Origin: an uncultured Pseudomonadales bacterium
GTDB taxonomy: Bacteria > Patescibacteriota > Microgenomatia > UBA1400 > CAYNMC01
Assembly (NCBI GenBank): GCA_964414895.1
Contig: CAYPXO010000005.1
Span: forward strand, 1-56,738
DNA: 56,738 nt
Direction of reading: 5' to 3'
Below the pieces are notes generated by a model. That model was not told the DNA's origin and ran no database searches. It saw nothing but the letters and a program-made list of their open reading frames with translations. The translations under genes were made by a program, and so were the position numbers. This document shows positions 1,955-39,285 of the stretch, piece by piece. The stretch's first letter is position 1, and every line of letters starts with the position of its first letter.

Positions 1955-3751
1955 TTACTCCCACTGAACTTGAGCTGGCGGTTTATGGCTAACATCATAA
2001 AAAACAGCATCAATCCCCTCCAAGGCTTTAATCTTTTGAGCCATTTCTTCAACTACCGGCCAAGGCAGTTTGGTAAACTCCGAGGTCATCGCGTTTTCCG
2101 AACAAAGAGGTCGCAAAACAATGCTTTCTCCACCCCGAAGACTAACTGGAATCATCACTACTGGAAATTCATAAACTTGCCCCACCAAACCATGCTTCGC
2201 CAAAGTTTGATTGGCAATATAATCTGCCATACAATGTGGCTTAAGCCTCTTCTTTGTCAAAAAGCCTTTCTTCAATCTTATCCTGCCCAATCTTTGCGGC
2301 TTTAAAAGATAAACAACATGATTAACCTCGGCTACCTTATTGGTAATTAGTGTGGAAACTTCCTCCAGGCGATCCCAGTCCTGATCTCCATTCATCAAAG
2401 AGCAAGCATAAGCAAAAGTGCGATGATCTCCTTGAACACCAACTGTCTTAACAGGCAAAACCTTAGCTTTATACTTAAATCTGCCGACAATTTTATTAAC
2501 TCTTTGTTCTAGTGATTTCGTTTTTGGTAATCTGGTAGTCGGACTACATAAAGACTGAATTGCCAAGCCCGGTCCAGGAAAAGTATGACGCCAAACTATT
2601 TGCTTGGGCAAGCCCAACTGCTTGCCTACCTTTCTAACTTCATCCTTATAAAGGTTAGCCAAAGGCTCTATGACCTTACCAGCAGCTATTAGGTCCAAAA
2701 CCGCCTGAACGCGATTGTGATGAGTAAAAATCTTGGCTGAATGCTTGGTTGCTCCACTTTCAATCCGATCCGGATAAAGAGTTCCTTGCCCCAACAACCA
2801 TTTGTCAGGATCAACTTTCAACCGCTTAAGAACTCTATCCTGCACTTCAATAAAAACCGTGCCAATAATTTTCCGCTTTTTTTCTGGATCAGACACTCCT
2901 TTGATAGCCTGTAAAAAATCTTTACTAGCGCCAACAACAATAAAATTCTTCAATCCCAAATTTTCTAAACTTTCTTTAACTGTTTGGCTTTCTTTATAGC
3001 GCATAAAACCATTGTCAATATGAAGACCCAAAACCCGCTTCTGTCCTAAAGCCTTATTCATTAAAACAAAAGCAACTGTTGAGTCAACTCCGCCACTAAT
3101 AAGCAAAAGAACATTTTTTTCTTTTACCTGTTTTTTAATTTTCTTAATCGCTTGGGTAATGAAATTTTTAGGGTTCCAATCCTTTGAACAACGGCAAATT
3201 TTGAGAGCAAAATTTCTCAGCATCTTTACTCCTTGGCGAGTATGGCTTACTTCAGGATGAAATTGAAAACCGTAAATTTTGCGCCGCTGATGGGCAATCG
3301 CTGCTGTCGGACAATCGGCAGTCAAACCAATAACTTTAAATCCTGGAGGTAGCTTTACTATTGAATCACCATGGCTCATCCAAACGGTTTCTTCTTCAGC
3401 TAAACCACGAAAAATACCCTTCCTATTAATAATTTTTAATTTTGCCTTTCCATATTCCCTTGTTTTTCCACTTTTAACTTCCCCTCCCAAAGCATGAGCA
3501 ATAAGCTGATGACCATAGCAAAGACCCAAAATCGGCACTCCCAGAGAAAAAATTTTTTTATCATAATTGGGGGCACTTTGCTCATAAACAACCGCCGGCC
3601 CGCCAGAAAGAATAATCCCTTCGGCTTTTTTAAAATTTTCGGCTTTTGTTTCCGAAGAAAAAATTTCCGAATAAACCCCCAAGGAACGAATTTGTTTGGC
3701 TAAAAGATGAGTATATTGGCTACCAAAATCAAGAATGGCAATCATAAACAC
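1955..3751 (-). CDS. guaA: GMP synthase (glutamine-hydrolysing)
   Basis: GATase motifs GLCYGHQLI and FHPEVSHT, PP-loop SGGVDSTV, C-terminal ..QWE. At 598 aa it is longer than typical GuaA. Confidence 0.9.
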   Translation of the reverse strand: MFMIAILDFGSQYTHLLAKQIRSLGVYSEIFSSETKAENFKKAEGIILSGGPAVVYEQSAPNYDKKIFSLGVPILGLCYGHQLIAHALGGEVKSGKTREYGKAKLKIINRKGIFRGLAEEETVWMSHGDSIVKLPPGFKVIGLTADCPTAAIAHQRRKIYGFQFHPEVSHTRQGVKMLRNFALKICRCSKDWNPKNFITQAIKKIKKQVKEKNVLLLISGGVDSTVAFVLMNKALGQKRVLGLHIDNGFMRYKESQTVKESLENLGLKNFIVVGASKDFLQAIKGVSDPEKKRKIIGTVFIEVQDRVLKRLKVDPDKWLLGQGTLYPDRIESGATKHSAKIFTHHNRVQAVLDLIAAGKVIEPLANLYKDEVRKVGKQLGLPKQIVWRHTFPGPGLAIQSLCSPTTRLPKTKSLEQRVNKIVGRFKYKAKVLPVKTVGVQGDHRTFAYACSLMNGDQDWDRLEEVSTLITNKVAEVNHVVYLLKPQRLGRIRLKKGFLTKKRLKPHCMADYIANQTLAKHGLVGQVYEFPVVMIPVSLRGGESIVLRPLCSENAMTSEFTKLPWPVVEEMAQKIKALEGIDAVFYDVSHKPPAQVQWE

Positions 3752-13010: not shown

Positions 13011-14678
13011 CTATCCATTTAATAATCTCCTTTTATATCTTTTCTCCAAACTCTGCAAAATCTTTTTATGAAACTTCTTCTCATAATCTTTTACCAAACT
13101 TTTGATCTGACCGCAAGATACCTCTTCGTGGCAAAAAGCGGTTTGTTGACATTTAACACTAATTGCCTCGGCTAATTCCGGCAAGCCTTTCTTTTTTAAA
13201 ACCTTTTTTATTGCTAAAACTTCTCCTTTACTTAAAGAAAGCAGTTGCTCCTCGACAGTTGAGCAAAGACGCAAAGGGTAATAACCGGCAATCAAATTAT
13301 AAAGATCATAGCTTTGCAAAACATCAATGCGGATGCCTCGGGGAATAATAAAAACCGCATCACGCGGCTTAACCCCTAACTTAAGTAATTTTTGATAACA
13401 ACCTAGCGAACCAAAAACAGACCGAAGATACTTTTTAAAAAAGTAAGGATTGTCTCGGACAGTTGGCGGAATAGAAAAAACCGAATCAATTTTATCTATT
13501 GTTCTATTGCTATATTGTTCTATTGCTATATTGTTAAATTTTGAATTTTCAATTTCAATTTTCAATTTCTTTAACAACTCGCAAGTACGATCTATGCAGT
13601 AGTATATCGATTCCACCACTTGCGGCACTGTCCGGTGACGCTTTTTGTCTCCCCAGACCCGCCAGGCAACCGAAGAGAGAGCTTTAAAATTAACTGCCAG
13701 GTTATAGTCGCGGCAAATTCTCCGCCTCATAGCCAACAGCTTTGGCCAATCTTTTAAAATTTTCTTTTTATCTTTGGCAATTTTCTTGGTCAAAGAGTTC
13801 AATCTCTTTAATTCCTGGCGCAAACCATTCGGGCTATCACAAAGAGTCATCCCTACAATGGACATCAAACCTGTAGGGGCGGGTCGTGACCCGCCCGTTT
13901 TAATTACGGGCGACCGACCGGTCGCCCCTACAAATGCCCTGACCAAATTTGAGGCTCTTGGATTTTTAAAGATATTAGGATAGGGGTAAATGTTTCGCGG
14001 GGCAACCAAACGGGTAGGGAAAAGCTGACCAACGCCCCACTTAGCAAATTGCTTCTCCAAAACTCCCAGAAGAATCCCTGCCTCCTCCGGCATCCAATCC
14101 TTTTCCAGCTCAAACTCCCGGGCAAAACCGACTACTGACTCGATAGGCAAAACCAAAATACCGGTGCCGTAAATACCGTATTGCAAAATCTTGCTCGCCT
14201 CATCTTTAGAAACACCCTTGCCCAAAAGCCAATTAAAGCAATTAATATTTTCCATTGACTGCTTTTGATAAATTTTTCTCGCTTTTTTGTTTTTCCAAAT
14301 AGCCGTTGGAGAAACAATATCATCAGCTTTTGTCCCTGTCCGCCGACCGGAGGCCATCAAAGCCGAGGCAAAAACAATACCTGTCATCATCGAGTCTATA
14401 AACTTACTTGCCTCATAAGTAAAAGCCAAAACTGGGGTAGTCGCAATTGAGGCATGGCCGCGCAAAGAAGACTTTTCCAAAATAACTTTCACTTTTTTGT
14501 CCAAATCTTGCCCTTTGCTATGAGTTTCTTTTAGAAGCTGTTTGACCGATTTTCCCTTGAAAGTCAAAAGCGCTGATAGAGCAACAATTTGCTCTGGGGT
14601 TAAAACACCAGTTTTATCTTGCAGGCGAGGAATAATTCCTAAGAATTGGAGTTTAAAGTTAGCCGTCTTTATCGACAT
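13011..14678 (-). CDS. ThyX-like (flavin-dependent thymidylate synthase family) protein, long form with in-frame repeat insertions
   Basis: RGHASIATTP.. and KKRHRTV segments resemble ThyX motifs. Context (glyA, dcd, tmk) fits. Divergent at 555 aa. Contains a REP-like element at 13873-13931 and simple repeats at 13501-13570. Confidence 0.5.
   Translation of the reverse strand: MSIKTANFKLQFLGIIPRLQDKTGVLTPEQIVALSALLTFKGKSVKQLLKETHSKGQDLDKKVKVILEKSSLRGHASIATTPVLAFTYEASKFIDSMMTGIVFASALMASGRRTGTKADDIVSPTAIWKNKKARKIYQKQSMENINCFNWLLGKGVSKDEASKILQYGIYGTGILVLPIESVVGFAREFELEKDWMPEEAGILLGVLEKQFAKWGVGQLFPTRLVAPRNIYPYPNIFKNPRASNLVRAFVGATGRSPVIKTGGSRPAPTGLMSIVGMTLCDSPNGLRQELKRLNSLTKKIAKDKKKILKDWPKLLAMRRRICRDYNLAVNFKALSSVAWRVWGDKKRHRTVPQVVESIYYCIDRTCELLKKLKIEIENSKFNNIAIEQYSNRTIDKIDSVFSIPPTVRDNPYFFKKYLRSVFGSLGCYQKLLKLGVKPRDAVFIIPRGIRIDVLQSYDLYNLIAGYYPLRLCSTVEEQLLSLSKGEVLAIKKVLKKKGLPELAEAISVKCQQTAFCHEEVSCGQIKSLVKDYEKKFHKKILQSLEKRYKRRLLNG
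13873..13931. repeat. 59-bp GC-rich REP-like palindromic element inside the ThyX-like CDS
   Basis: GTAGGGGCGGGTCGTGACCCGCCCGT..ACGGGCGACCGACCGGTCGCCCCTAC. 58/59 identical to 14767-14825. Translated in frame as VGATGRSPVIKTGGSRPAPT. Confidence 0.9.
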
Positions 14679-15644: not shown

Positions 15645-15776
15645 AAAAAGCGAAAAGCTAAAAGTGCAAAGCGAAAAACTACAACGTAAAAGTCAAAACT
15701 TTCATCAAAATTACATTAAAATTAGCTTTACGCTTTGAGTTGTAGCTTTTACTTTTTAGCTTTTACTTTTTAGCTT
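15645..15776. repeat. AT-rich 7-bp-periodic hairpin element (AAAGC-type arms)
   Basis: Left arm ..GCTAAAAGTGCAAAGCGAAAAACTACAAC, right arm GTTGTAGCTTTTACTTTTTAGC... The right arm supplies the last codons (KLKSKS) of the Clp ORF. Related copies at 18568-18675, 21493-21545, 22634-22740 and 23270-23331. Confidence 0.8.
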
Positions 15777-17663
15777 TATCAAATATTCCCCCTCCCTCTC
15801 CTCCCACTCTACCTCAATCTCGTCTCCCCTTCGTATCCTTCCCCCCAGCATCCCCTTGGCAATCTCATCCTCAATCTTGTCAGCAATTACTCGCTTCATT
15901 GACCGAGCGCCAAATTCCGGCGAATAACCCTCAAGAACAACTTGCTTGATTACTGCCGGCCCAAATTTTAAAATAACATCTTTTTTAGTTAAGCGCAAAG
16001 CCAATTTAGTAAGCTGCAGACGGGCAATCTGTTCTAATTCTTTCCTGCCTAGAGGCTGAAAAACAACTACTCCGTCAAAACGGTTTAAAAACTCCGGAGA
16101 AAATAAGCCCTTGCTCTGGATATATTCTATTGTTAGGCTCTGTAATTCTTGTTTATTAACCCCCGCCTGAACTTTTTCTCGGATAAACTCACCGGCCGCA
16201 TTGGAAGTAGCAATAATAATAGTGTCAACGAAAGAAACCTTTCTATCCTGGAAATCAGTTAAATAGCCTTCGTCAAAAACGGTCAAGAAAATGTCTAAAA
16301 GCCGGCGGTGGGCCTTTTCCAACTCGTCAAGCAAAAAAACAGAAAAAGGGTTGTCTTTCGCTTTACTAACCAAAAGTCCTAAGCCGGCAGTTTGCGAACC
16401 GATCAACCTCTCCAAGCTCTCCTGCCTTTGATACTGACCCATGTCAAAACGGACCAGCCGCGACTCGTCTCCAAAATAAACTTGGGCTAAGGTCTTGGCT
16501 GTCTCTGTTTTCCCTACCCCTGTCGGACCTAGAAAAAGAAAAACTCCCATTGGCTTCTTGCGAGAAGAAACTTGCAACCGGGAGCGGCGCAAAGCAGAAG
16601 CCAACCGCCCAATAGCTTCTTGTTGGTTAACTACTCTTTTATGCAAACTTTCTTCTATTTTAACCAGCTTTTTTTCTTCCCCTGAAGAAATTGCTCCAAC
16701 TGGCACTCCTGACTTTTCAGAAACCAGTTGATCAATATCTTTGCTCGTAATCAACTTCTTCCTTTTAATCTCTTCAAACTTGCTAATTGCCTGATCAAGT
16801 AAATCAATCGCCTTTTCCGGAAAAGGAATCTCAGTAATTAAACGATCGGAAAGCTCAATAATCTTTTCTAAAGCTTGATAGCTAACCTTTACTTTCTTCC
16901 CTTGTTCGAAATCAGGCAAAATCGCCTGGAGAATTTCCAAGGCCTGCTCTTTGCTTGGCGGCCGGACACTAATCTTTTCAAAAAGCTTTAAAAACTCCTC
17001 ATTGCCAACTAAATACTTGTTAAAAGCCTCACTGCTGGCAAGAGCAATAAGCTGCAAGCGTCCGCTGGCCGCTGCTTTAGAAAAAATGCCTATCAGCTCA
17101 ACCTGTCCCTCGCCGGAAGAAACAAATTTGTCTATCTCCTCAATAATCAAAATAATGTGGCCGGCTGCAATCGCCTCGGCAAGCAAAGAAGAAAGTTTTT
17201 CTTTACTCTCTTGCAAGGCAGACTTTTTAATTATCCTGTTTAACTCAAGCCTAAGGACGCGCTTGTAAGCCAACTGAGGCCTAGTCTCTCCTTGATGAAC
17301 CAGCCGGGCAAACCCTAACACAATCGTCTGCTTGCCCACGCCCGGCGGACCAACGAGTAAAACATTGTTTTCTCCTTTTCTTCCCAAAACTTCTTCAATT
17401 TTACCAACCTCTTCTTCCCGACCAACCAACTGGTGAAAAAAAGGAGTCGGTTGAGTCAAATCAGTCACATATTCATCTAAGTTGGGAGTATAGCCAAAAG
17501 AAAAGCTCCAACCAATGCCCGGGCCTTTAAGCAAATTTTCTTTTTCCCAAAAACGAGCCTTTTTCTGCCTCTTTTTTTCCAGGCTTTCAAACCAGCGGGC
17601 AACTTCCAAAACATGCTCTGGTTTTATCTTTCGGTCAAATAAGAACCTCTTCTTCCCGACCAA
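15756..17663 (-). CDS. Clp/Hsp100-type double AAA+ ATPase (C-terminal part of a gene split by a tandem duplication)
   Basis: Two Walker A motifs (GPPGVGKQT, GPTGVGKTE) and ClpA/B-type D2 small-domain sequence. The track start is a TTG inside the duplicated segment. Confidence 0.85.
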   Translation of the reverse strand: MVGKKRFLFDRKIKPEHVLEVARWFESLEKKRQKKARFWEKENLLKGPGIGWSFSFGYTPNLDEYVTDLTQPTPFFHQLVGREEEVGKIEEVLGRKGENNVLLVGPPGVGKQTIVLGFARLVHQGETRPQLAYKRVLRLELNRIIKKSALQESKEKLSSLLAEAIAAGHIILIIEEIDKFVSSGEGQVELIGIFSKAAASGRLQLIALASSEAFNKYLVGNEEFLKLFEKISVRPPSKEQALEILQAILPDFEQGKKVKVSYQALEKIIELSDRLITEIPFPEKAIDLLDQAISKFEEIKRKKLITSKDIDQLVSEKSGVPVGAISSGEEKKLVKIEESLHKRVVNQQEAIGRLASALRRSRLQVSSRKKPMGVFLFLGPTGVGKTETAKTLAQVYFGDESRLVRFDMGQYQRQESLERLIGSQTAGLGLLVSKAKDNPFSVFLLDELEKAHRRLLDIFLTVFDEGYLTDFQDRKVSFVDTIIIATSNAAGEFIREKVQAGVNKQELQSLTIEYIQSKGLFSPEFLNRFDGVVVFQPLGRKELEQIARLQLTKLALRLTKKDVILKFGPAVIKQVVLEGYSPEFGARSMKRVIADKIEDEIAKGMLGGRIRRGDEIEVEWEEREGEYLIKLKSKS

Positions 17664-17884
17664 CCAACTGGTGAAAAAAAGGAGTCGGTTGAGTCAAATC
17701 AGTCACATATTCATCTAAGTTGGGAGTATAGCCAAAAGAAAAGCTCCAACCAATGCCCGGGCCTTTAAGCAAATTTTCTTTTTCCCAAAAACGAGCCTTT
17801 TTCTGCCTCTTTTTTTCCAGGCTTTCAAACCAGCGGGCAACTTCCAAAACATGCTCTGGTTTTATCTTTCGGTCAAATAAGAAC
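17406..17884. repeat. perfect 238-bp tandem duplication (2 copies, 3-bp AAC junction microhomology)
   Basis: 17406-17643 matches 17644-17881 by direct comparison. 238 is not divisible by 3. Confidence 0.9.
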
Positions 17885-18564
17885 TTGTTTAAAGGTTGCC
17901 AATCACGGCTGAGTTGAAAAAATAGGTCGGATAGGCGTGTAGGGGCGCGGTTTTCGCGCCCGTCATTGCGGTTTTCGCGCCCGTCAGACCAAACGGGTAA
18001 GGGAACCTCGCATGAGACGGGCGGGATGACCCCGCCCCTACGGATTGAATCCCCACCAGATGAGTCAACCAAACCATTGATCTCCTTTCCCTCAATCCCC
18101 AATCTCTCAATCACAAACCGGCCAATCGGCCGAGAAACAAGCATTAACAAAATCGCTGCCGGATCTCTGGTTTGGCTCAAAATCTTCTCCACTTCATTTT
18201 CCGATTTCCCTTTTATCCATTTATAAATCGGCCAGGACAAAAGAAAAGCAAACTGCCAGATCAGCAAAAAAGCCACTCCTAAGAAGACTAAAGCCAGCTC
18301 CGCCAGCAAGCCGATAAAAATCAGAAAACTGCGAACCAAAAAACCAATTACTCTAGAGATCAAATTAAAAGTTAATCTCTCTAAAAAGGCTTTGGGCGAG
18401 AAGCCGGTTTTTTCCAAAGAAACTACCCGCCGCCAGGGAGAAAAAAGAGTTTTTAGTAAAATTCCTATGGAGAAAAAATGCCAGCAAGCCAAAAGATAAT
18501 TTTTCCAAATCTTGAGGATAAATCTATTGACGGTCTGGTAGTGCCAAAAGAAATAAGAAATCAC
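17635..18564 (-). CDS. N-terminal membrane-domain fragment of the same AAA+ gene
   Basis: Hydrophobic N-terminus. The C-terminal ~80 aa duplicate the N-terminus of ORF 15756-17663 (FLFDRKIKPEHVLEVARWFESLEKKRQKK..). Confidence 0.6.
   Translation of the reverse strand: MISYFFWHYQTVNRFILKIWKNYLLACWHFFSIGILLKTLFSPWRRVVSLEKTGFSPKAFLERLTFNLISRVIGFLVRSFLIFIGLLAELALVFLGVAFLLIWQFAFLLSWPIYKWIKGKSENEVEKILSQTRDPAAILLMLVSRPIGRFVIERLGIEGKEINGLVDSSGGDSIRRGGVIPPVSCEVPLPVWSDGRENRNDGRENRAPTRLSDLFFQLSRDWQPLNKFLFDRKIKPEHVLEVARWFESLEKKRQKKARFWEKENLLKGPGIGWSFSFGYTPNLDEYVTDLTQPTPFFHQLVGREEEVLI
17939..18041. repeat. 103-bp REP-like element (GTAGGGGCG...CGCCCCTAC) in frame within a CDS
   Basis: Terminal inverted GTAGGGGCG/CGCCCCTAC with internal GCGCGGTTTTCGCGCCCGT duplicated. 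Translated as ..PVWSDGRENRNDGRENRAPT.. Confidence 0.8.
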
Positions 18565-18771
18565 TTAGAAGCTAAAAGCTTAAAGTGCAAAGCGAAAAAC
18601 CACAACTAAAAACTTAAAACTTCTCAGCTTTAAGCTGTAGTTTTTACTTTTTAGCTTTTAGTCTTTAGCTTAAAAACATCATACAAGAAATCCTGCCTTG
18701 TGCTCAAGAAGTAAAGAAGCAAGAAAATCCTCATGTCAAAATTTTAGATCCAGCTTTTTCTTTTATCATAT

Positions 18772-18993: not shown

Positions 18994-19001
18994 ATCTAAA
19001 G

Positions 19002-21086
19002 TCAAGCAGGCCTCCGCCACGAGGCCCACTGGCATTTTGGCCAGCACTCACAGCCATAGAACTGCCTTCCTTTTCTAGTCTTTCTAATAATCACCGCTGC
19101 CCCACATTTGGGGCACTTTACTTTAGGAACTTTTTCCTTGTAATCATCCTTCCAATCGCAGTCAGGAAAACGTGAACAAGACAAAAACTTGCCAAAGCGG
19201 CCAGTGCGAATAACCACTTCTCCTTTTTTGCACTTCGGACATTTCCTGCCAGTTTTCTCTGCCTCTATCTTAACTCTTCTGGCCTTTTCCGCCACTTTTT
19301 TAAGCTTTTTTTCAAAAGGAGTATAAAACTCTTTTAAAATCGGCACCCATTTTCTCTCGCCTCTGGCGATCGCATCCAAATCCTCCTCCATTTGCGCGGT
19401 AAAAGGAATCTTTACAATCTCCGTAAATTCCTTTACCAAAAAGCGGTTGATTGCCTCGCCGATCGGCGTTGGCCAAAAACTACCCTCTTTTTTCTCTACA
19501 TAATTTCTTGCTTGCAGCAAAGAAATAATCGGCGCATAAGTTGATGGCCGGCCAATACCCTTGCTTTCCAAAGTCTTAACCAAAGAAGCTTCGTTGTAGC
19601 GCGGCGGCGGGCTGGTAAAGCTCTGATTGGGCAAGACATCAACCAGTTTTAATTTGTCACCCTTATTTAGTTTGGGCAAAAACTTTTCTTTCATCCTGCC
19701 ACCATAGAGCTTTAAAAAACCCTCAAAAAGAGTCCGCAGCCCAGAAGCTCTTAATAGATAAGGACCGGCTTTCACCTGCAGCCTGGTTTGAGCCAGCCGC
19801 GCTGCGGCCATCTGTGTTGCCACCGCCCGTTTCCAAATGAGAGCATACAAGCGCCTTTCATCTTTGCCGGTTGCCGGTTGCCGGTTGCCGGTTGCCAGTC
19901 GGCGAGTACTGGCTGCTGGCTGCTGGCTGCTGGCAACTACTTTAACATTCGTGGGACGAATGGCTTCATGCGCCTCTTGAGCTACTTTAGAACGAGTTTT
20001 GTAAACCCGCGGTTTTTCCTCGCAATACTCTTGCCCAAAATTATCCTTTATATATCTTCTCATCTGGTTAATCGCTCGGCTAGCTAAGGCAAAAGAGTCT
20101 GTCCGATGATAGGTAATGTAACCTTCTTCATAAAGCTTTTGCGCTAACATCATTGTTTTCTTGCCAGAAAAGCCGAAGCGATTGTGGGCTTTTTGCTGAA
20201 GAAGAGAAGTAGTAAAAGGCGGTGGTGGAGTTCTTTTCGTCTCTTTTTCCTCTATCTTATCTACGATAAAATCCTGTTTCTTTAAATCTCTCTCTATTTT
20301 CTTCACTTCTCTTTGATACTTGATACTTGATACTTGATACTTGTATTGTCCGGCAAAAAGATCCAAAATTATCCTTTTTTCATATTTCTTACCGTTTTTA
20401 GAATACAAAGAAGTAAGAAAATCAGCTTTTAGCTTGGAGCTTTTAGCTTTTAGCTTTGTTTCTATCGTCCAATATTCCTTCTTTTTAAACTTATCAATTT
20501 CCTTCTCTCTTTCCACAATCAAGCGCAGAGCAACCGACTGCACCCGGCCGGCAGACAAACCCCTCCTCACCTTTCTCCAAAGAAGTGGAGAAAGCTTATA
20601 ACCAACCAAACGATCCAAAATCCTCCTAGCCTGCTGGGCATGAACCAATTTTAGATCGATTTTGCCCGGACTCTTTAAAGCCTGTTGAACTGCCGATTTA
20701 GTAATTTCATGGAAGGTAATCCTTAAGAATTGGGAATTGGGAATTGGGAATTGGGAATTTGAGCACACCACGGTAACGTGGTGTGCGATTGCTTCGCCCT
20801 CCCTGTCCGGGTCAGTCGCCAAAATAATCTGCTTGGCCTTTTTCGCTCCCTTCTTCAACTTCTCAATTACTTCCTTTTTAGCAGGAATCAAAACGTATTC
20901 CGGCTTAAAGTTATGCTTCACATCAACAGCCAGCTTCTTTTTGGGCAAATCGCGAACATGTCCCATCGAAGCCATAATATTAAACTCTTTACCTAAAAAA
21001 CGGCCTAGAGTCCGTGCCTTGGTCGGCGATTCAACAATGACTAGGTTCATAATTTCTACCATACCCTTTCTGCACTTTTTTTGCAA
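19002..21086 (-). CDS. topA: DNA topoisomerase I
   Basis: Toprim N-terminus LVIVESPTKA, active-site region YITYHRTDS, C-terminal Cys4 zinc ribbons. The likely start is ATG 21062 or 21050 rather than TTG 21086. Confidence 0.95.
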   Translation of the reverse strand: MQKKCRKGMVEIMNLVIVESPTKARTLGRFLGKEFNIMASMGHVRDLPKKKLAVDVKHNFKPEYVLIPAKKEVIEKLKKGAKKAKQIILATDPDREGEAIAHHVTVVCSNSQFPIPNSQFLRITFHEITKSAVQQALKSPGKIDLKLVHAQQARRILDRLVGYKLSPLLWRKVRRGLSAGRVQSVALRLIVEREKEIDKFKKKEYWTIETKLKAKSSKLKADFLTSLYSKNGKKYEKRIILDLFAGQYKYQVSSIKYQREVKKIERDLKKQDFIVDKIEEKETKRTPPPPFTTSLLQQKAHNRFGFSGKKTMMLAQKLYEEGYITYHRTDSFALASRAINQMRRYIKDNFGQEYCEEKPRVYKTRSKVAQEAHEAIRPTNVKVVASSQQPAASTRRLATGNRQPATGKDERRLYALIWKRAVATQMAAARLAQTRLQVKAGPYLLRASGLRTLFEGFLKLYGGRMKEKFLPKLNKGDKLKLVDVLPNQSFTSPPPRYNEASLVKTLESKGIGRPSTYAPIISLLQARNYVEKKEGSFWPTPIGEAINRFLVKEFTEIVKIPFTAQMEEDLDAIARGERKWVPILKEFYTPFEKKLKKVAEKARRVKIEAEKTGRKCPKCKKGEVVIRTGRFGKFLSCSRFPDCDWKDDYKEKVPKVKCPKCGAAVIIRKTRKGRQFYGCECWPKCQWASWRRPA
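19864..19936. repeat. paired heptanucleotide tracts (TTGCCGG)x4-5 ... (CTGGCTG)x3-4 inside topA
   Basis: Counted directly. Translated as ..ASSQQPAASTRRLATGNRQPATG... The arms are partly complementary. Confidence 0.9.
20314..20346. repeat. (TGATACT)x4 heptanucleotide tract inside topA
   Basis: Counted directly at 20314-20341 plus a partial unit. Encodes ..YKYQVSSIKYQ.. Confidence 0.9.
20424..20458. repeat. (AGCTTTT)x5 degenerate heptanucleotide tract inside topA
   Basis: Counted directly. Encodes ..KLKAKSSKLKA.. Confidence 0.85.
20727..20761. repeat. (GAATTGG)x4-5 heptanucleotide tract inside topA
   Basis: Counted directly. Encodes ..NSQFPIPNSQF.. Confidence 0.9.
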
Positions 21087-21163
21087 ACAAAAAATTCTCT
21101 TTCTCCATTTATCCTACTTTAACAAATTTAACAAAGCGATAATCGTCAGCTCAAACAATAATC

Positions 21164-21278: not shown

Positions 21279-22403
21279 CTATAAACAATATTCACCATTG
21301 CCCAAATTTTTTATCATCCCCTTTAGTTCCATTTGTGTTAAAGCCGAAGAAACTTCTGAAGCTGATGAGCCAACTTCCCGAACAACCTCATCTAAATGCT
21401 TAATGCCGCTAGTCAGTGTCTGCCAAATCTTTTCCTCTGTTTGGTTGCTAAATTTGAGTTCTTTTTTCGCTGAAAAACTATTTGATTTTAATAGTTTTAA
21501 GTTTTGCGCTGTGGTTTTGAGCTTTGAGTTTTGAGTTTTGAGATTTATTAAAATGTCTTCCCCTTTCGTCACCAATTTTGCTCCTTCTTTAATTAACCTG
21601 CTTGGACCGGCCGAAAGCTGTGAAGTAATCGGCCCAGGCACAGCAAAAACCGGCCGGCCAAGCTCCTTAGCAAAACCAGCAGTAATTAGACTTCCTGAAT
21701 CTGAACTGCCTTCAACAACTACTGTTCCCAAACCTAAACCAGCCAAAGTTTTGTTTCTTGCCGGAAAATTGCCAGGTAAAGATGACAATCCCAAAGGAAA
21801 TTGGCTAATAAGAGCTCCCTGTTGACAGATCTTTTCAGATAAAGCTTTGTTCTCCGGCGGGTAGATAGTATCCAAACCATGGCCGACCACTGCCAAAGTT
21901 CGGCCACCATATTTTAGCGCCGCCCGATGGGCGGCGCTGTCCACTCCCCGTGCCAAACCAGAAACCACAACTACATTATTAGCTACCAAGCTGGAAACAA
22001 GTCGCTCGGTTGCCTGCCGACCGTAGCTAGTAATTCTTCTAGTTCCCACTACAGTTATAGCTAGTGAGTCCTGAACCTTAACCTCTCCTTTTATGTAAAG
22101 CAAAAATGGCCCTCTATCAGCACTTTTCAACAATCTTGGATACTCCTTACCCTCCAAAGTAATAAATCTTATAAGACTTTTTTCTAATCGAAGCTTATAC
22201 GAAGAAATACTAAACTCTTCTCTAAATTGCAAAAAACTCTCTTTTAATTTATCCGGAAAGTTGATTTCTTGCCAAATCTCTTTTTTCGCTTGCCAAGCTT
22301 TCTTGGCACTACCAAAGATTGCCAAAATCTTGGCAAACCTTTTTTTCCCAATGCCCTTAAAAACATTAAAGCCAAGCCAGTAGTCTTTTTCTTTAAGCCT
22401 CAT
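21279..22403 (-). CDS. dprA: DNA-processing protein DprA/Smf
   Basis: Rossmann-like core GLARGVDSAAHRAAL.. and a C-terminal winged-helix-like tail. In-frame repeat insertion at 21493-21545. Confidence 0.9.
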   Translation of the reverse strand: MRLKEKDYWLGFNVFKGIGKKRFAKILAIFGSAKKAWQAKKEIWQEINFPDKLKESFLQFREEFSISSYKLRLEKSLIRFITLEGKEYPRLLKSADRGPFLLYIKGEVKVQDSLAITVVGTRRITSYGRQATERLVSSLVANNVVVVSGLARGVDSAAHRAALKYGGRTLAVVGHGLDTIYPPENKALSEKICQQGALISQFPLGLSSLPGNFPARNKTLAGLGLGTVVVEGSSDSGSLITAGFAKELGRPVFAVPGPITSQLSAGPSRLIKEGAKLVTKGEDILINLKTQNSKLKTTAQNLKLLKSNSFSAKKELKFSNQTEEKIWQTLTSGIKHLDEVVREVGSSASEVSSALTQMELKGMIKNLGNGEYCL

Positions 22404-22469: not shown

Positions 22470-23456
22470 TCAAAGCTTTAACTTTTTAAGTTTCTGTTTA
22501 TACCCTCTCATCACCACCTTTCTTTTATCTTCTGGGTGGAATAAAAGACGGTGGGCTTCAATTTTTTCTTTGGTTCGCTTGCCAGCCATATATTTGAGTT
22601 GCAACCAGCGCAAAAAATTCTCAATTAGAGAAAGGGCAAAGCTCAAAGCGCAAAGCGAAAAACTACAACTCAAAGCGCAAAACTTTTTAAAGTTTTTACT
22701 TTTACGCTGTCGCTTTACACTTTTAGCTTTTAGCTCTAAGCTTGGCAGGAAATCTTTTACCCAACTGTTTACTCCTAAAAACCTCCCATAAACTCCCCTC
22801 TCCCACAAAGGCCTCATCTGCCCCACCTCATGTGCCGTAAACAAATCTCTCTCCTTTGCCGGCACTCCCATCCCTATTTCATCAACAAACATATTGAGGC
22901 AAATTTTATCTTTGAATTTTTTATCTCTAGGCTTTCGCCGCCAACCAAGAAAATCAAAAAGAAGAGTAACTAAAAACCTTGTTGTCCATAAGGTGTTAAC
23001 CTTGCAAATAACAAAAAAATCAATATCATCATCTTTATCCACATTACTAACCGCCAGCCCGCCGGAAACACCAACCAATAAAACCGAAGGGAAAATCTTT
23101 AGCCACTTTGTTCTCTTCTCCGCCAGCCTCATTTTCTCCACTGCCCATTTTTCTTTTTGCAATCGTTGCTTAACTAAGTTCTTTCTTTCGGGAAGAAAGT
23201 AAAAATTGTCCTTTTCCCCAATTCTATTCTCTTTAACTAATTTCCTTAATATTGATTTAAATTGCTCTTTTTTAGTTTTAAGTTTTGCACTGTAGTTTTG
23301 AGTTTTTAGCTTTGCGCTTTGCGCTTTAAGGAAAACCTCGTTTTCCTTAATTGGCCAATCAAAAAGATCAGCATAAGCAAGGGTTTTCAAAATAGATTGC
23401 TCTATTACTTTATGTTGCCTCATTACTATACTATTGAATAACTCCTGAATAACCAC
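22470..23456 (-). CDS. hypothetical protein with nucleotidyltransferase-like motif
   Basis: GVSGGLAVSNVDKDDDIDFFVI resembles the pol-beta NTase G[SG]..D.D signature. Carries two in-frame repeat tracts (22634-22740, 23270-23331). Confidence 0.45.
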   Translation of the reverse strand: MVIQELFNSIVMRQHKVIEQSILKTLAYADLFDWPIKENEVFLKAQSAKLKTQNYSAKLKTKKEQFKSILRKLVKENRIGEKDNFYFLPERKNLVKQRLQKEKWAVEKMRLAEKRTKWLKIFPSVLLVGVSGGLAVSNVDKDDDIDFFVICKVNTLWTTRFLVTLLFDFLGWRRKPRDKKFKDKICLNMFVDEIGMGVPAKERDLFTAHEVGQMRPLWERGVYGRFLGVNSWVKDFLPSLELKAKSVKRQRKSKNFKKFCALSCSFSLCALSFALSLIENFLRWLQLKYMAGKRTKEKIEAHRLLFHPEDKRKVVMRGYKQKLKKLKL

Positions 23457-24060: not shown

Positions 24061-25785
24061 TCAGGATGACGAGGGGCGGTTTTCAAACCACCATTTCAAA
24101 ATCTCTTTGGCAATTGGGCTGGCCACTTCAGAGCCCTCCCCTCCATTTTCCACCAAAACAGTTAAAACAATCTCCGGGTTTTCAATCGGCGCAAAAACCG
24201 TAAACCAAGCATGGGGCTCGGACTTTTCTCCCGGCGACTCCGCTGTTCCTGTTTTACAACCAACTTCTATCCTTTTGAAATCTGCCGAGGTGGTAGCCGG
24301 ACCACCCGTGCCAAAATCAAAAAAAGGAAAGCCCGTTCCATTTTTCTCTCCTTCTTTCTGTCCCCGCAAACACGCCTGCCTCATCCCTTCTCTTACCAAA
24401 ACTAAATTTTCCTCAGAAATTTCCAAAGAACGACAGCTTGAAGTACTCACTAGATCATGCGGCCGTTGGTCATAGTAAGTATCTTGTTGGCCGTTTTTAA
24501 TTGCCTTAAGCAATTTTGGCAAACATAATTTCCCTTGATTGGCAATAACTGTCGTCATCATATTCACCTGTAAAGGGGTAGCCAATAAATCTCCCTGGCC
24601 AATGGCGGTAATAAAATCATCTCCCAAAAACCAACTCTCGCCCTTAACCTCTCTTTTCCAGTCTTCACTAGGCACCAGGCCCTTGGCTTCACCCGGCAAA
24701 TCAATACCAACCACCTCACCAAAACCAAGCTTACCCGCCCAACTGCCCAACCTTTCTATCCCCAGTCTTTCTCCAACTCGATAAAAGAAAATATCATTAG
24801 AACGCTTGATCGCCTTAACAATATCCACCACCCCTTCTGTTCCTCCATATTGGCGATAATACCAGTTGCCAAAAACCCAATCACCTATCTTGATTTGTCC
24901 GCTATCTTCAATTATTGTATCTTTATCAATCTCCTTTTCTTGCAAACCAGCCAAAGCAGTAACAATCTTAAAGGTCGATGCTGGTGGATAAACGCCTGAA
25001 ATGGCCCGATTGAACATCGGCTGGCTTTCATCATTCAAAATCTTTTGAAGTTCTTCTTGACGCTTGACGCTTGACACTTGACGCTCTTTGCTAAAAACAT
25101 TCGGATCAAAGGAAGGCGTTGAGACCAAAGCCAAGATTTCTCCTGTATCCGCCAAACTGGCAACTACCGCCCCTTTTTTATCCTCCATTGCTTCAAAAAC
25201 CTTTTTCTGCAACTCTAAATCAACGGTTAACTGCAAGCTCTCCCCGGCAATCGGCTCTTTTCTTCCTAAATCTCTTATCTTTTCTCCTTGAGCATCAAAT
25301 TCTTCCAAAATACCACCGTCTCCTCCACGCAAAAGTAAATCATATTCCTTTTCAATCCCCATCTTGCCAATTAAGTCACCGGCAACATAAATGCAATCCT
25401 GAGGAGAAGTCTGACCAATTTTGTGAGCCTTCTCAATGCGAGCGCCGCTAACTTCCTCTAAAGCAGAAGAGTTTTCTCGCGAGTCTGATTCTGAAGGCGA
25501 TATCAAAATTGCGTTAGACGACTCCTCGCAAGAGCTTAGCTCCTCCTTACTTATCTCCCCAATATAACCCAAAAGATGGGCGAAAACCGATCCATAGACA
25601 TATTCTCTCCCCTCAGGCGTATTGCGCACCAAAAGCTCTCCAGTCCGATCATAAACAACGCCTCGCAAAGCAGGAATATTTTTAATTTTTATCCGATTGC
25701 CCTCTGCCAATTGGCGATAATAGTCTCCACGAACAATTTGCAGAACAAAAAGCCTGCTTATAAGAACCCCAAAACCTAGAATCAA
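24061..25785 (-). CDS. mrdA: penicillin-binding protein 2 (elongasome transpeptidase)
   Basis: SxxK (ASTFK), SxN (RSND) and KTG (CKTGTA) motifs, N-terminal TM. Adjacent to mreBCD. Confidence 0.85.
   Translation of the reverse strand: MILGFGVLISRLFVLQIVRGDYYRQLAEGNRIKIKNIPALRGVVYDRTGELLVRNTPEGREYVYGSVFAHLLGYIGEISKEELSSCEESSNAILISPSESDSRENSSALEEVSGARIEKAHKIGQTSPQDCIYVAGDLIGKMGIEKEYDLLLRGGDGGILEEFDAQGEKIRDLGRKEPIAGESLQLTVDLELQKKVFEAMEDKKGAVVASLADTGEILALVSTPSFDPNVFSKERQVSSVKRQEELQKILNDESQPMFNRAISGVYPPASTFKIVTALAGLQEKEIDKDTIIEDSGQIKIGDWVFGNWYYRQYGGTEGVVDIVKAIKRSNDIFFYRVGERLGIERLGSWAGKLGFGEVVGIDLPGEAKGLVPSEDWKREVKGESWFLGDDFITAIGQGDLLATPLQVNMMTTVIANQGKLCLPKLLKAIKNGQQDTYYDQRPHDLVSTSSCRSLEISEENLVLVREGMRQACLRGQKEGEKNGTGFPFFDFGTGGPATTSADFKRIEVGCKTGTAESPGEKSEPHAWFTVFAPIENPEIVLTVLVENGGEGSEVASPIAKEILKWWFENRPSSS
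25056..25083. repeat. (CTTGACG)x4 heptanucleotide tract inside PBP2
   Basis: Counted directly, one unit variant. Encodes ..SKERQVSSVKRQEE.. Confidence 0.9.
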
Positions 25786-25901
25786 AATAAAAAGAAAAAG
25801 TTTTTCTCTCAGATGAATAAATCCTTAGAAGTTAGAAGGTAGAAAATTGAAAAGAGAAATCTATCTTCTATCTTCTAAGTTCTACTTTCTATTCTAATTG
25901 T

Positions 25902-32610: not shown

Positions 32611-35196
32611 ATGAACTGGCTCAAGTTTCTTAACAAAACTATTGAGTATTCATTTTACTTTCTTCTTTTTACCATTCCTTTGATTTTAACCCCGGTAAAC
32701 TACGAGCTTTTTGAGTTTAATAAAATGATGCTTGCTTATACAATGACCGTTATTATCATCGGCGCTTGGATTGGCAAATGGATTATTGGTGGAAAGGTAG
32801 AAATTAAAAGAACGCCGCTGGATATTCCTATTCTAATATTCTTACTAAGCCAAGTTCTCTCTACTATTTTCTCTATTGATCGACATACTTCTATCTGGGG
32901 ATATTATTCTCGCTTCCATGGGGGCTTGCTGTCAACAATAAGCTATATACTATTATACTATGCTTTTGTAAGTAATATGGCAAAGTGGCAGGTGGCAGGT
33001 GGCAGGTGGCAAATAGACAATAAAAAATCCAAAAATAAAGATAGACAATCAGCCACAAGCCACAAGCCACAAGCAATAATAAACTGTCTCTATATCCTTC
33101 TTGCCTCCGCCACCCTCGTTACCTTTTACGGCATCCTGGAGCATTTTGGCATTGATGCCGACTTTTGGGTCCAGGATGTCCGCAATCGGGTTTTTTCCAC
33201 TCTGGGCCAGCCAAACTGGCTGGGAGCTTGGATTGATGCCCTAATCTTTATTCCAGTAGCAATGGCTCTCGCCATAAGCACCAAATCACAAGCACCAAAT
33301 TACAAGCAAGCACCAAGCACCAAGCACCAAATTATAAAAAAATCACAAAGAGTTTGGAACTTGGGATTTGGGATTTGGGATTTGTTTGGAACTTGGGATT
33401 TGGGATTTGGGATTTATATTCTATATTCTATATTCTATATTCTATATTCCTGTTTATTATTCACCGGTTCCCGTTCCGCTTTTTTTGGCTTTTTAGCCGC
33501 AGCCGCTGTTTTTCTTTCTCTCCTTGTAATTTCCCTGAGAAGGGGTTACCCCTCACGAGGGGTAACCCCTTTTATTTTTTCCCTATCCTCACTCCTCTTC
33601 GTCATCTTTTCCTTTCTCTACGAATGGAAAAAAATTCCCAGCTTAAAATTTACCAGCCTAGGCTTGCTGGCTACTACCCTTGTTTTCCTTCAAATCAATC
33701 TAAAAAAAAGCCTTCTTAGAATCATTAATGTTCTCCTTGCCGGCGTAATTGTTATTTCTCTTTTAATAGGTACCCCAATTACCCCACCAATTGGTAAACT
33801 TATCAAAATCAAAAGTAATTTGCCAGCGACCAGCGACCAGCGACCAGCGACCAATATTCTCCCTTTAACGCCTATTATCTCCAGGTCGTCTGATATCCGC
33901 AAAGTTGTCTGGAAAGGAGCGATTGATGTTTGGCGGCATTGGCCGATTTTTGGCTCAGGGGTGGAAACTTTTGCTTATTCCTACTATAACTTCCGACCGC
34001 GAGAACATAACGATCTATCAGAATGGGACTTTTTATATAACAAAGCTCACAATGAATATCTGAACTATTTGGCTACTACTGGCATATTTGGTCTGGGAAG
34101 TTATCTCTTAATGATAGGATGGTTTTTGGTATGGAACCTGAGAGAAATTTTCAATTTTCAATTTTCAATTTTCAATCAAGCACCAAACTCCAATAAAAGA
34201 AAGTTTGAAAATTCAGACATTGAAAATTCATTGAAAACTGAAAATTGGTCATTGATCATTTCTCTTCTCGCCGGTTACTCCAGTATTCTGGTAACTAACT
34301 TCTTCGGCTTCTCCGTTGTTCCTGTCGCCCTCCTCTTTTGGCTCTTTCCGGCCTTTGTTTTTAGTCTTGCCAATGCTCTACCCGAACAAGCTGTCATTTT
34401 CGCACTGCGGCCGCAGTTCAAATTTGACAGTCGAAAAGGAAAGAAAAAACCCAAAAAACCATTCAACTCTCTAGCCATTCAACCATCAAGTTCTCTCCAA
34501 TACTTCACTCTTTTTATCCTGCTGGCTGCTGGCTGCTGGCTGCTGGCTGCTTTATTCCGTCTCTGGCTGGCCGACTATAAATTCGCTCAAGGAAAAAAAT
34601 ATACTGCCAGCGGCTATTTGCTACCGGCTTACCAAAGCCTAACCGAAGCGGTCAATCTCAACAAAGGAGAACCTCTTTTCCACTCTTATCTTGGAGAAAC
34701 AGCCGCTATGGTCGCTCTAGCCTATCACCAGCAAGACGCCAGTCTGTCAGCTCAATTAGTTGACCAGCTCAGCCAACAAGCAATCGAGCAAAGCGAAAAA
34801 ACTCTAAAAATTAACTCTGTTCATCTTAACTATTATAAAAATGCTGCCAAAACCTATATTTACCTGGGACAAATAGAGCCATCTTTTACCCAAAAGGCAA
34901 TAGAAATCCTAAAGACGGCCACCAGTCTTTCCCCAACCGATGCCAAACTTAGTATTAATCTCGTTCTTTTATATCAGCAAGAAGAACAACTAGACAAAGC
35001 AATAGAAGAGTTGGAAAAAACGGTAGCTCTTAAACCAAACTATACCCGCGCTCATTTAATGCTCGCCAAGCTCTATCATCAAACAAGCCAACAGCAAAAA
35101 GCAATCGATCAGTTAAATTTCATCCTCACTCAAATCCGTCCAGAACATCAAGAAGCAAAAACCTTACTTGAAAAGTGGCAAAACAATCTACAATAA
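32611..35196 (+). CDS. O-antigen ligase (Wzy_C)-like polytopic membrane protein with C-terminal TPR repeats
   Basis: Multi-TM with NKAHNEYLNYLATTG (O-antigen-ligase-type motif) and a C-terminal TPR-like region. Five in-frame simple-repeat insertions. Confidence 0.75.
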   Translation: MNWLKFLNKTIEYSFYFLLFTIPLILTPVNYELFEFNKMMLAYTMTVIIIGAWIGKWIIGGKVEIKRTPLDIPILIFLLSQVLSTIFSIDRHTSIWGYYSRFHGGLLSTISYILLYYAFVSNMAKWQVAGGRWQIDNKKSKNKDRQSATSHKPQAIINCLYILLASATLVTFYGILEHFGIDADFWVQDVRNRVFSTLGQPNWLGAWIDALIFIPVAMALAISTKSQAPNYKQAPSTKHQIIKKSQRVWNLGFGIWDLFGTWDLGFGIYILYSIFYILYSCLLFTGSRSAFFGFLAAAAVFLSLLVISLRRGYPSRGVTPFIFSLSSLLFVIFSFLYEWKKIPSLKFTSLGLLATTLVFLQINLKKSLLRIINVLLAGVIVISLLIGTPITPPIGKLIKIKSNLPATSDQRPATNILPLTPIISRSSDIRKVVWKGAIDVWRHWPIFGSGVETFAYSYYNFRPREHNDLSEWDFLYNKAHNEYLNYLATTGIFGLGSYLLMIGWFLVWNLREIFNFQFSIFNQAPNSNKRKFENSDIENSLKTENWSLIISLLAGYSSILVTNFFGFSVVPVALLFWLFPAFVFSLANALPEQAVIFALRPQFKFDSRKGKKKPKKPFNSLAIQPSSSLQYFTLFILLAAGCWLLAALFRLWLADYKFAQGKKYTASGYLLPAYQSLTEAVNLNKGEPLFHSYLGETAAMVALAYHQQDASLSAQLVDQLSQQAIEQSEKTLKINSVHLNYYKNAAKTYIYLGQIEPSFTQKAIEILKTATSLSPTDAKLSINLVLLYQQEEQLDKAIEELEKTVALKPNYTRAHLMLAKLYHQTSQQQKAIDQLNFILTQIRPEHQEAKTLLEKWQNNLQ
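32985..33075. repeat. (GTGGCAG)x4 ... (GCCACAA)x3 paired heptanucleotide tracts in CDS
   Basis: Counted directly. GTGGC and GCCAC cores are complementary. Encodes ..KWQVAGGRWQIDNKKSKNKDRQSATSHKPQA.. Confidence 0.9.
33277..33449. repeat. compound simple-repeat block in CDS: (AAGCACCAAATYAC)x2, (AGCACCA)x3, 31-bp unit x2 containing (TTGGGAT)x3, (TATATTC)x5
   Basis: Counted directly. Adds about 58 aa of low-complexity sequence. Confidence 0.9.
33824..33851. repeat. (CAGCGAC)x4 heptanucleotide tract in CDS
   Basis: Counted directly. Encodes ..PATSDQRPATN.. Confidence 0.9.
34147..34248. repeat. hairpin element in CDS: (ATTTTCA)x4 left arm, TGAAAAT-type right arm
   Basis: The arms are reverse complements of each other. 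Encodes ..FNFQFSIFNQAPNSNKRKFENSDIENSLKTENW.. Confidence 0.85.
34519..34551. repeat. (GCTGGCT)x4 heptanucleotide tract in CDS
   Basis: Counted directly. The same heptamer family occurs in topA at 19909-19936 and in nadE at 39079-39106. Confidence 0.9.
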
Positions 35197-39181: not shown

Positions 39182-39277
39182 TTTTTCAAAATTTCCAATT
39201 TACAAATTTACAAACGTTTGAATCCGCCAGCTGGCGGAGAAAATTCATTGGAAATTGGAGCTTGAAAATTGAAAATT
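39182..39277. terminator. long AT-rich hairpin with central TCCGCCAGCTGGCGGA palindrome between convergent nadE and rpmB
   Basis: Arms are TTTTCAAAATTTCCAATTT.. and ..AAATTGGAGCTTGAAAATTGAAAA. Position is consistent with a bidirectional terminator. Confidence 0.45.
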
Positions 39278-39285
39278 AAAGGGGT

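Follow-up and report, generated by a model that had tools for sequence, protein, structure and literature searches.

In-frame heptanucleotide tandem arrays in topA and other genes of a contig from a sediment metagenome

Among the long simple sequence repeats (SSRs) of most prokaryotes, heptanucleotide repeats are the commonest class, and a polymerase contact of about 7 nt has been proposed as the cause, according to the survey of Mrazek et al. 2007 as summarised in PMC4679880 and PMC4692102. The present analysis concerns tandem arrays of 7-nt units that lie in frame within the DNA topoisomerase gene topA, and within PBP2, dprA, nadE and a Wzy-like gene, on a 56.7-kb contig (CAYPXO010000005.1, 40% GC) of an uncultivated, ultra-small bacterium of Microgenomates type from a sediment metagenome; the whole contig was analysed and is called the window. 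With moderate confidence, the tracts are read as heptanucleotide microsatellites produced by a lineage-wide bias towards realignment in a 7-nt register, filtered by selection and evolving in concert in place. Period 7 was already known from the literature; the dense in-frame location in coding sequence is new, and a literature search for a paper on dense in-frame coding heptamer arrays in bacteria of the candidate phyla radiation (CPR) found none. Microsatellites whose unit is not a multiple of a triplet should be lost from essential genes, yet those of the window are long-lived, are translated and occur at high density. They contribute modules of seven amino acids (aa) to loops, and even to a beta strand, of core enzymes in a bacterium whose genome is very small, and so provide a concrete case in which the shaping of proteins by mutational bias can be tested.

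Like the prokaryotic long SSRs of that survey, the window arrays are head-to-tail repeats with at least three copies of a 5-11-nt unit, with diverse units and an excess of the 7-nt unit over neighbouring lengths. In the survey, coding regions favour units that are multiples of a triplet and heptamers are mainly intergenic, whereas all 16 strong arrays of the window (defined below) are intragenic and in frame, occur in housekeeping enzymes and reach a density of about 280 per Mb. The heptamers of Xanthomonas and Nostoc (GGGAATC and GGGGA(T/C)T; PMC4692102) and the short tandemly repeated repetitive (STRR) sequences of cyanobacteria share with the window the 7-nt unit, inverted pairs able to form stem-loops, and a preference for about four units, which in Xanthomonas and Nostoc was attributed to G-quadruplex formation (PMC4692102). 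They consist, however, of one or few genome-specific G-rich consensus units, over-represented in non-coding and under-represented in coding DNA, whereas the window arrays are coding and comprise 19 unit classes among 28 arrays, mostly not G-rich. The TAACTGA direct repeats of marine Beggiatoaceae (PMC4679880) also occur in 2-6 copies, with the stop content of the unit dictating their position in genes and a few copies translated at the protein periphery, but they are a single fixed heptamer, located mostly upstream of start codons and suggested to be regulatory, whereas the window has many units, internal to genes.

In neuO of E. coli K1 and the hmw1A/hmw2A promoters of H. influenzae, the likeness is that a change by a 7-nt unit shifts frame or expression; these are, however, dispensable surface or virulence genes with variable, often larger copy numbers and documented ON/OFF alleles, of which none was seen in the window. 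The tandem repeats of Borgs (PMC9879509) resemble the window arrays as perfect, apparently recently homogenised repeats within open reading frames (ORFs), flanked by partial repeats; the proteins that gain disordered loops from them are often membrane or extracellular proteins. All in-ORF units of Borgs are divisible by three, whereas the window unit is 7 nt, with a peptide period of 7 aa per three units. Rickettsia palindromic elements are likewise repeat DNA translated in intact housekeeping proteins at permissive sites, and translated GC-rich inserts of this type are present in PBP2 and nadE of the window. Those elements occur as dispersed copies of conserved sequence, whereas the window arrays have site-specific units and no second copy of the two-armed block of topA was found in the metagenome contigs; dispersed copies that include non-repeat parts were found only for an intergenic AAAAGCN/NGCTTTT element, in three copies.

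An exact-periodicity scan of the window for perfect tracts of at least three copies, with dinucleotide-preserving shuffles as the null, detected 13 tracts at period 7 (3.3-5.0 copies), none at periods 5, 6 and 8-15 and none in the shuffles, confirming that the heptamer periodicity of the original prediction is far beyond chance. When mismatches were allowed (strong arrays, at least 18 of 21 lag matches), the window gave 16 arrays at lag 7, whereas lags 4-6 and 8-11 gave none. ORFs make up 79% of the window and contain all 16 arrays: nine in the Wzy-like gene, five in topA, and one each in dprA and PBP2, the nadE array being weaker. A control panel of 1.4-2.4 Mb of other loci, fetched via TopA and mostly from Chloroflexota and other phyla with some Patescibacteria, contained 43 arrays at period 7 versus 0-15 at each of periods 5, 6 and 8-11. 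Its period-7 density was about 18 per Mb, some 280 per Mb being the window value, and its arrays were concentrated in few contigs, mostly of Patescibacteria. The panel loci were mostly distant (at most 56% TopA identity) and were not used for orthology, for which closer relatives were obtained via exact-protein look-ups.

The window TopA is nearest to proteins labelled Microgenomates-group Patescibacteria (Beckwithbacteria, Chisholmbacteria, Levybacteria), at no more than 68% identity. It matched the Pfam families Toprim, Topoisom_bac and Zn_ribbon_Top1 (E 6e-124), its top PDB match was 6OZW (E 2e-143), and Pfam confirms the gene identities of the array-bearing ORFs. The tracts that had been listed for topA, PBP2, nadE and dprA were all recovered at the same positions by tandem-repeat scans of the window; the five blocks ascribed to an O-antigen ligase are present in the Wzy-like gene, where they number eight to nine. 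The ORFs of these five genes are uninterrupted across every tract, as had also been claimed. The arrays of topA are as follows.

19002-21086, minus strand: topA, type IA DNA topoisomerase of 694 aa, carrying five heptamer arrays
20727-20759, minus strand: site 1, (GAATTGG)x4.7, perfect, encoding SNSQFPIPNSQF
20424-20457, minus strand: site 2, (AGCTTTT)x4.9, 85% match, encoding KLKAKSSKLKA
20313-20343, minus strand: site 3, (TTGATAC)x4.4, perfect, encoding YKYQVSSIKYQ
19909-19934, minus strand: site 4a, (CTGGCTG)x3.7, perfect, encoding VASSQQPAAS
19864-19896, minus strand: site 4b, (TTGCCGG)x4.7, perfect, encoding LATGNRQPATG

A Logan contig from run X1 (3,338 nt, 14.8x depth) showed zero differences from window positions 19000-21100, and fragments from a second sample, X2, at 2x depth over the tracts at 20424 and 20727, had equal copy numbers. 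No indels were listed in this comparison, and no length variant or frameshifted allele was found in X1 and X2, in assembled contigs, which hide rare variants. A search for a second strain by exact-protein look-up of the neighbouring MreB recovered only a contig of the same sample, 100% identical to the window. The period-7 tracts are thus no product of assembly.

In an alignment of 120 homologues used to survey loop lengths, the four tract sites were exactly the four length-variable segments of TopA, and control segments had a constant length in 120/120. Alignment with the solved enzymes 6OZW and 4RUL placed gaps at sites 1, 3 and 4, with the catalytic motifs aligning cleanly. The loop at site 4 is 33 aa long versus a mode of 19 aa among the homologues (+14 aa); it exceeds that of the relatives L082 and L083 by 14 aa and that of L081 by 21 aa. 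Modal loop lengths at sites 1 and 2 were offset by +7 aa, and site 3 measured 12 or 20 aa. Quantisation in strict steps of 7 aa everywhere was considered and fails at site 3, at the first Wzy-like loop (a difference of 18 aa from relatives) and at the nadE array (about 2 aa). In an AlphaFold2 model (mean predicted local distance difference test score, pLDDT, 75.6), the double array of site 4 (residues 385-405) was a disordered loop (pLDDT 31-51) and sites 1 and 2 were loops of reduced confidence. Site 3, by contrast, was predicted with confidence to form a beta strand (residues 246-253) in a hairpin specific to the lineage; therefore, not all tracts are floppy.

Codon-level alignments were made with relatives whose TopA is 58-68% identical to that of the window, and lag-7 identity was ranked against each relative's own gene. 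At site 1, where the window has AATTCCC x4.7, L082 has the succession AACTCAA, AATTTAA, AATTCAA, AATTTTT in matching codon register; the arrays of L082 and L085 are decayed, with an AAnTCAA unit (lag-7 identity 0.74, 99th percentile), and the decayed array of L081 is weaker (92nd percentile). At site 2, as at site 1, the lag-7 signal is present in some of the relatives, and the array of L166 is near-perfect, its unit, AAAATCA, differing from that of the window. At site 3, the window has AAGTATC x4.4 and L083 has AAATATC, AGAGTTC, AACTATC, AGAAATC; over the aligned 33 nt, a segment equal in length in the window and the relatives, the lag-7 signal was at or above the 95th percentile of the own gene in 7/9 relatives. 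Judged from these alignments, the arrays at sites 1-3 predate the divergence of the compared lineages. Because the relatives carry decayed arrays in the same codon register, the arrays at these sites are old and were re-homogenised in place: they decay by substitution and, in the window lineage, a changed unit has spread to all copies. By the same kind of comparison, site 4 (its array 4b having no counterpart in 9 close relatives), the PBP2 array and the nadE array are assigned to the window lineage specifically. The relatives show 7-bp structure, contrary to the possibility that the tracts are conserved segments without it, and the decayed orthologous arrays of sites 1-3 speak against a copied or templated origin as a general rule, which had been proposed over local slippage; only one topA/nadE pair, described below, looks copied.

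Since 7 and 3 are coprime, all cyclic trinucleotides of a heptamer unit serve as codons. Stops were absent from 15/16 units on the coding strand but from only 10/16 on the antisense strand, a proportion equal to that expected at random (0.62). The sole stop-bearing unit, AAAAGCT at 20424, is accompanied by a deviant unit (AAGCTCC for AAGCTAA) that removes the in-frame TAA. This pattern of stops would be expected if the output of a mutational source passed through a minimal filter. In the favoured reading, DNA synthesis or repair of the lineage would tend to realign in a 7-nt register, giving rise to heptanucleotide microsatellites, with slippage or realignment as the generating step. An array would survive in a gene if its unit is stop-free in all three frames of the coding strand, if the net length change is a multiple of 3 (three units, i.e. 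21 nt or 7 aa, or a length-neutral out-of-register conversion), and if it lies in a protein segment tolerant of change. Established arrays would then persist at their site, decay by point mutation and occasionally be re-homogenised in place by conversion (concerted evolution), from which the perfect copies of the window, where relatives have decayed ones, would follow.

The arrays of PBP2, dprA and the Wzy-like gene are as follows.

25056-25085, minus strand: PBP2, (CTTGACG)x4.3, encoding ERQVSSVKRQE
21493-21546, minus strand: dprA, (AGTTTTG)x7.9, 77% match
32611-35196, plus strand: Wzy-like gene, a Wzy_C/TPR membrane protein with nine strong arrays
32985-33074, plus strand: Wzy-like gene, paired arrays (GTGGCAG)x3.9 and (AGCCACA)x3.4, complementary over GTGGC/GCCAC
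33307-33449, plus strand: Wzy-like gene, cluster of (CAAGCAC)x3.4, (TTGGGAT) twice in a 32-nt duplicated block, and (TATATTC)x5.0
33823-33853, plus strand: Wzy-like gene, (CCAGCGA)x4.4
34146-34176, plus strand: Wzy-like gene, (AATTTTC)x4.4, encoding EIFNFQFSIFNQ
34519-34551, plus strand: Wzy-like gene, (CTGCTGG)x4.7, the unit of topA 19909

Compared with the orthologue in L082, PBP2 has a net insertion of exactly 7 aa (21 nt, three units). In the Wzy-like protein, arrays make up much of its 90-190 extra residues and are sited between predicted helices; the arrays at 32985-33074 are a net insertion in an inter-helix loop, and the cluster at 33307-33449 is largely missing from relatives. At the 34146-34176 site, relatives have FKFEIFNK or FKFLISKQ, and the AATTTTC unit recurs in an array at 13537-13568. 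The 32-nt block at 33352-33415 is a tandem duplication containing the (TTGGGAT) array, with its second copy in another frame, so that the translations are WNLGFGIWDL and then FGTWDLGFGI; the ORF stays open through it because the array is stop-free in all frames.

The nadE gene carries the following array, whose motif was present in 0/119 NadE relatives.

39079-39103, plus strand: nadE, (GCCAGCA)x3.6, encoding VASSQQPAAK

The recurrence of the CTGGCTG unit in three unrelated genes, part of the original prediction, was confirmed at 19909, 34519 and, as the complement, 39079. The topA array at 19909 and nadE (39074-39095) have a run of 22 bases in common, TAGTTGCCAGCAGCCAGCAGCC, of which five lie beyond the repeat, and the pair looks like a copied patch. 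No common flank was found between Wzy-like 34519-34551 and topA 19909, nor any non-periodic flank sharing between the other same-unit arrays compared in the window. A (CTGGCTG)n array was also present in two further X1 contigs, in other contexts and at 13x depth; as a near-CTG-triplet motif, CTGGCTG may be prone to expansion.

Neighbouring arrays tend to be complementary. The arrays of topA sites 4a and 4b pair in register on the plus strand, with 6-bp helices every 7 nt, giving a hairpin of -23.1 kcal/mol that was equalled by 0/200 shuffles; the mRNA strand would not form this pairing, because it includes G·T pairs. The first Wzy-like pair (GTGGC/GCCAC) gave a hairpin z-score of -4.76. Such scores against shuffles overstate significance, because shuffling destroys the repeats, and they were replaced by a comparison of adjacent with non-adjacent array pairs, in which there were only 7 adjacent pairs. 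The folds and this comparison bear out the earlier statement that many tracts occur as partly complementary neighbours.

Several observations weigh against a realignment bias with in-place evolution. Stepwise slippage cannot pass intermediates of +7 and +14 nt in single-copy essential genes, and for this reason the birth of an array needs a multi-unit step, which was not observed; how a perfect array of four to five units originates in such a gene without these lethal intermediates is the question that the tracts raise. Strong arrays are confined to two genes in 14 of 16 cases, a concentration that tolerance alone may not explain. The run lengths of perfect period-7 tracts were flat from 16 to 27 nt, with a mode at 31-35 nt (4.4-5.0 copies) and none longer, a spectrum without a decaying tail. 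Units are re-used in the window (AAAAGCT x4, AAAATTG x4 and AGCAGCC x3 among the 28 arrays). The nadE array is nearly length-neutral, swapping a conserved segment of about 8 aa for 10 aa, and it matches the topA array at 28/31 positions, with flank and frame shared and VASSQQPAA encoded by both; given three arrays with the CTGGCTG unit, the chance probability of this sharing is about 0.01. Finally, 3/7 adjacent array pairs were complementary at 6/7 positions or more, versus 4.3% of non-adjacent pairs.

The leading rival explanation, which we consider unlikely but not negligible, is that patches of about 31-35 nt are actively written or overwritten from a template in one event, in a 7-nt register, by reiterative copying in gap repair, ectopic short-patch conversion between arrays, or intrastrand template switching at a hairpin or quasi-palindrome, selection then retaining only in-frame, stop-free outcomes. 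A writing process of this kind would account for the 31-35-nt mode with nothing longer, for the overwriting of a conserved nadE segment (about +2 aa, no counterpart in 119 relatives) and for a shared patch of about 31 nt in topA and nadE that includes 5 nt of non-periodic flank in the same frame. It is also consistent with the presence of the (CTGGCTG)n array in two other contigs of the source metagenome, whose depth is similar, with the excess of complementary adjacent pairs, with the in-register folding of the topA and Wzy-like pairs, and with the four-unit preference of the intergenic Xanthomonas and Nostoc heptamers, where the reading frame is not the cause (PMC4692102). Site 3, perfect in the window at the exact length of the relatives' decayed arrays, fits it too, although as evidence for a new process its "overwriting" is weakened by those very arrays. 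Against such writing, only one array pair shares its flank, at a chance probability of about 0.01, and other same-unit arrays share none; the related same-register units of relatives at sites 1 and 3 fit local evolution; and no candidate enzyme was identified. The 31-35-nt mode, which a process writing patches of about 33 nt explains, is equally explained by one seed unit plus three, followed by decay and selection against longer, less stable arrays. A mobile two-armed topA element was rejected, as no second copy of the block was found in metagenome contigs X1-X3 at 90% likeness or more. It is doubtful that CPR bacteria, and perhaps other heptamer-rich lineages, possess a DNA transaction that writes 31-35-nt patches in a single event; if they did, it would explain perfect arrays in essential genes without frameshifted intermediates, the clustering at four to five units even where frame is irrelevant, the complementary neighbouring arrays and the patch common to topA and nadE.

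The tracts had also been regarded as bearing the hallmark of contingency loci, in which gain or loss of one unit reversibly switches a gene and makes the population heterogeneous, and the placement of such repeats in indispensable genes had been called odd. The unit length, not being a multiple of 3, would indeed shift the frame with each unit, heptanucleotide switches such as neuO and the hmw promoters are known, and the Wzy-like envelope gene, of a typical switch class, holds nine arrays. Every array is in frame, however, no length variant or frameshifted allele was seen in the contigs of the two samples (subject to the limit given above), and three topA sites have remained in frame over 32-42% protein divergence, decaying by substitution. 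The arrays have at most five perfect units, whereas known switches are usually longer. The oddity is real: topA, PBP2 and nadE have housekeeping roles and are presumably indispensable, dprA is also a housekeeping gene, and only the Wzy-like gene fits the dispensable class. Phase variation is therefore improbable, and a switch function for topA, PBP2 and nadE is not supported.

Slightly less probable still is selection at the protein level, by which 7-aa-periodic peptides would be kept as useful linkers or disordered loops, as for the amino-acid repeats of Borgs. Most arrays are indeed in loops, disorder is predicted for site 4, and similar peptides (NSKIKNQ, FQFSIFN, VKRQVSS) recur in relatives. 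Conservation is, however, at the DNA register and not at the peptide, the units at one site differing between lineages, and perfect nucleotide identity between units extends to synonymous positions, unlike the outcome of peptide selection. Antisense stops at chance level and diverse units are as from a mutational source with a minimal filter, and periodic arrays also occur in intergenic hairpin elements.

An assembly or sequencing artefact has practically no probability: although a tandem duplication elsewhere in the window (17406-17884) is a probable assembly artefact, the tracts are at most 35 nt, below read length and assembly k-mers, an independent assembler gave them exactly, the second sample agreed at two tracts, and relatives from other studies have arrays at matching sites.

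That duplication is a perfect 238-bp tandem repeat (2.0 copies, 100% identity) where two ORFs overlap, 15756-17663 and 17635-18564, which jointly resemble one Clp-type AAA+ ATPase. Among the Logan contigs, the unit forms a contig of its own (241 nt, depth 9.95), the flanks being at 12.4 and 14.8; as a true duplication should double the depth, this one was probably created in assembly and splits the gene artificially. Inside ORF 17635-18564, at 17947-17986, there are 1.9 perfect copies of a 21-nt GC-rich unit, GCGGTTTTCGCGCCCGTCATT.

Outside the arrays described so far, the 7-bp periodicity that had been attributed to AT-rich intergenic elements was found in their heptamer-periodic arms. The elements are the following.

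15645-15780: palindromic element with heptamer-periodic arms, (AAAAGCN)n ... (NGCTTTT)n, with more copies at about 18568-18675 and 22630-22745
25825-25892: intergenic inverted pair of heptamer arrays, (TTAGAAG)/(TCTATCT), 6/7 complementary
39185-39280: hairpin element 3' of nadE, with heptamer-like arms, GC core CCGCCAGCTGGCGG and a fold z-score of -3.0

The three copies of the palindromic element measure about 110-135 nt and have the common core AAAGTGCAAAGCGAAAAAC[TC]ACAAC; two are intergenic and one is in the 3' part of ORF 22470-23456, which had no Pfam match. A partial copy is present at about 23273-23327, and the unit in the arms is that of topA site 2. No Rfam family matched the palindromic and hairpin elements.

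Two genes with heptamer arrays also carry other in-frame inserts. In PBP2, an insert at about 25380-25500 (residues ~92-130) encodes ILISPSESDSRENSSALEEVSGARIEKAHKIGQTS and is the same element as the TopA inserts of the relatives P0012/L167 (ILMSPSESNSRKTLSASEKDSGARIAKSHKIGQTS) and P0007/L168, that is, a dispersed GC-rich element translated in different housekeeping genes of different genomes. NadE (38203-39174) has 323 aa, compared with about 255 aa in relatives, and contains two more in-frame inserts, at residues ~60-100 and ~137-168, unrelated to the heptamers; one of them encodes SLRGMPIPKQSQSDCHAPPDETSGFARNDKK, a typical translation of a GC-rich palindromic repeat of many uncultivated bacteria.

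For the annotation of CPR metagenome-assembled genomes, heptamer tracts are hot spots of frameshift miscalls, and they are also markers for strain typing. One contig of X2 matches only the (TTGATAC)n of 20313-20343; because its flanks are unrelated on both sides, this array exists in another context in the community. In the contig of a relative, L087, a (CAGTCCC)n array at 3384-3423 is a rotation of CCCCAGT, the STRR1 heptamer of heterocystous cyanobacteria, a likeness that may be coincidence.

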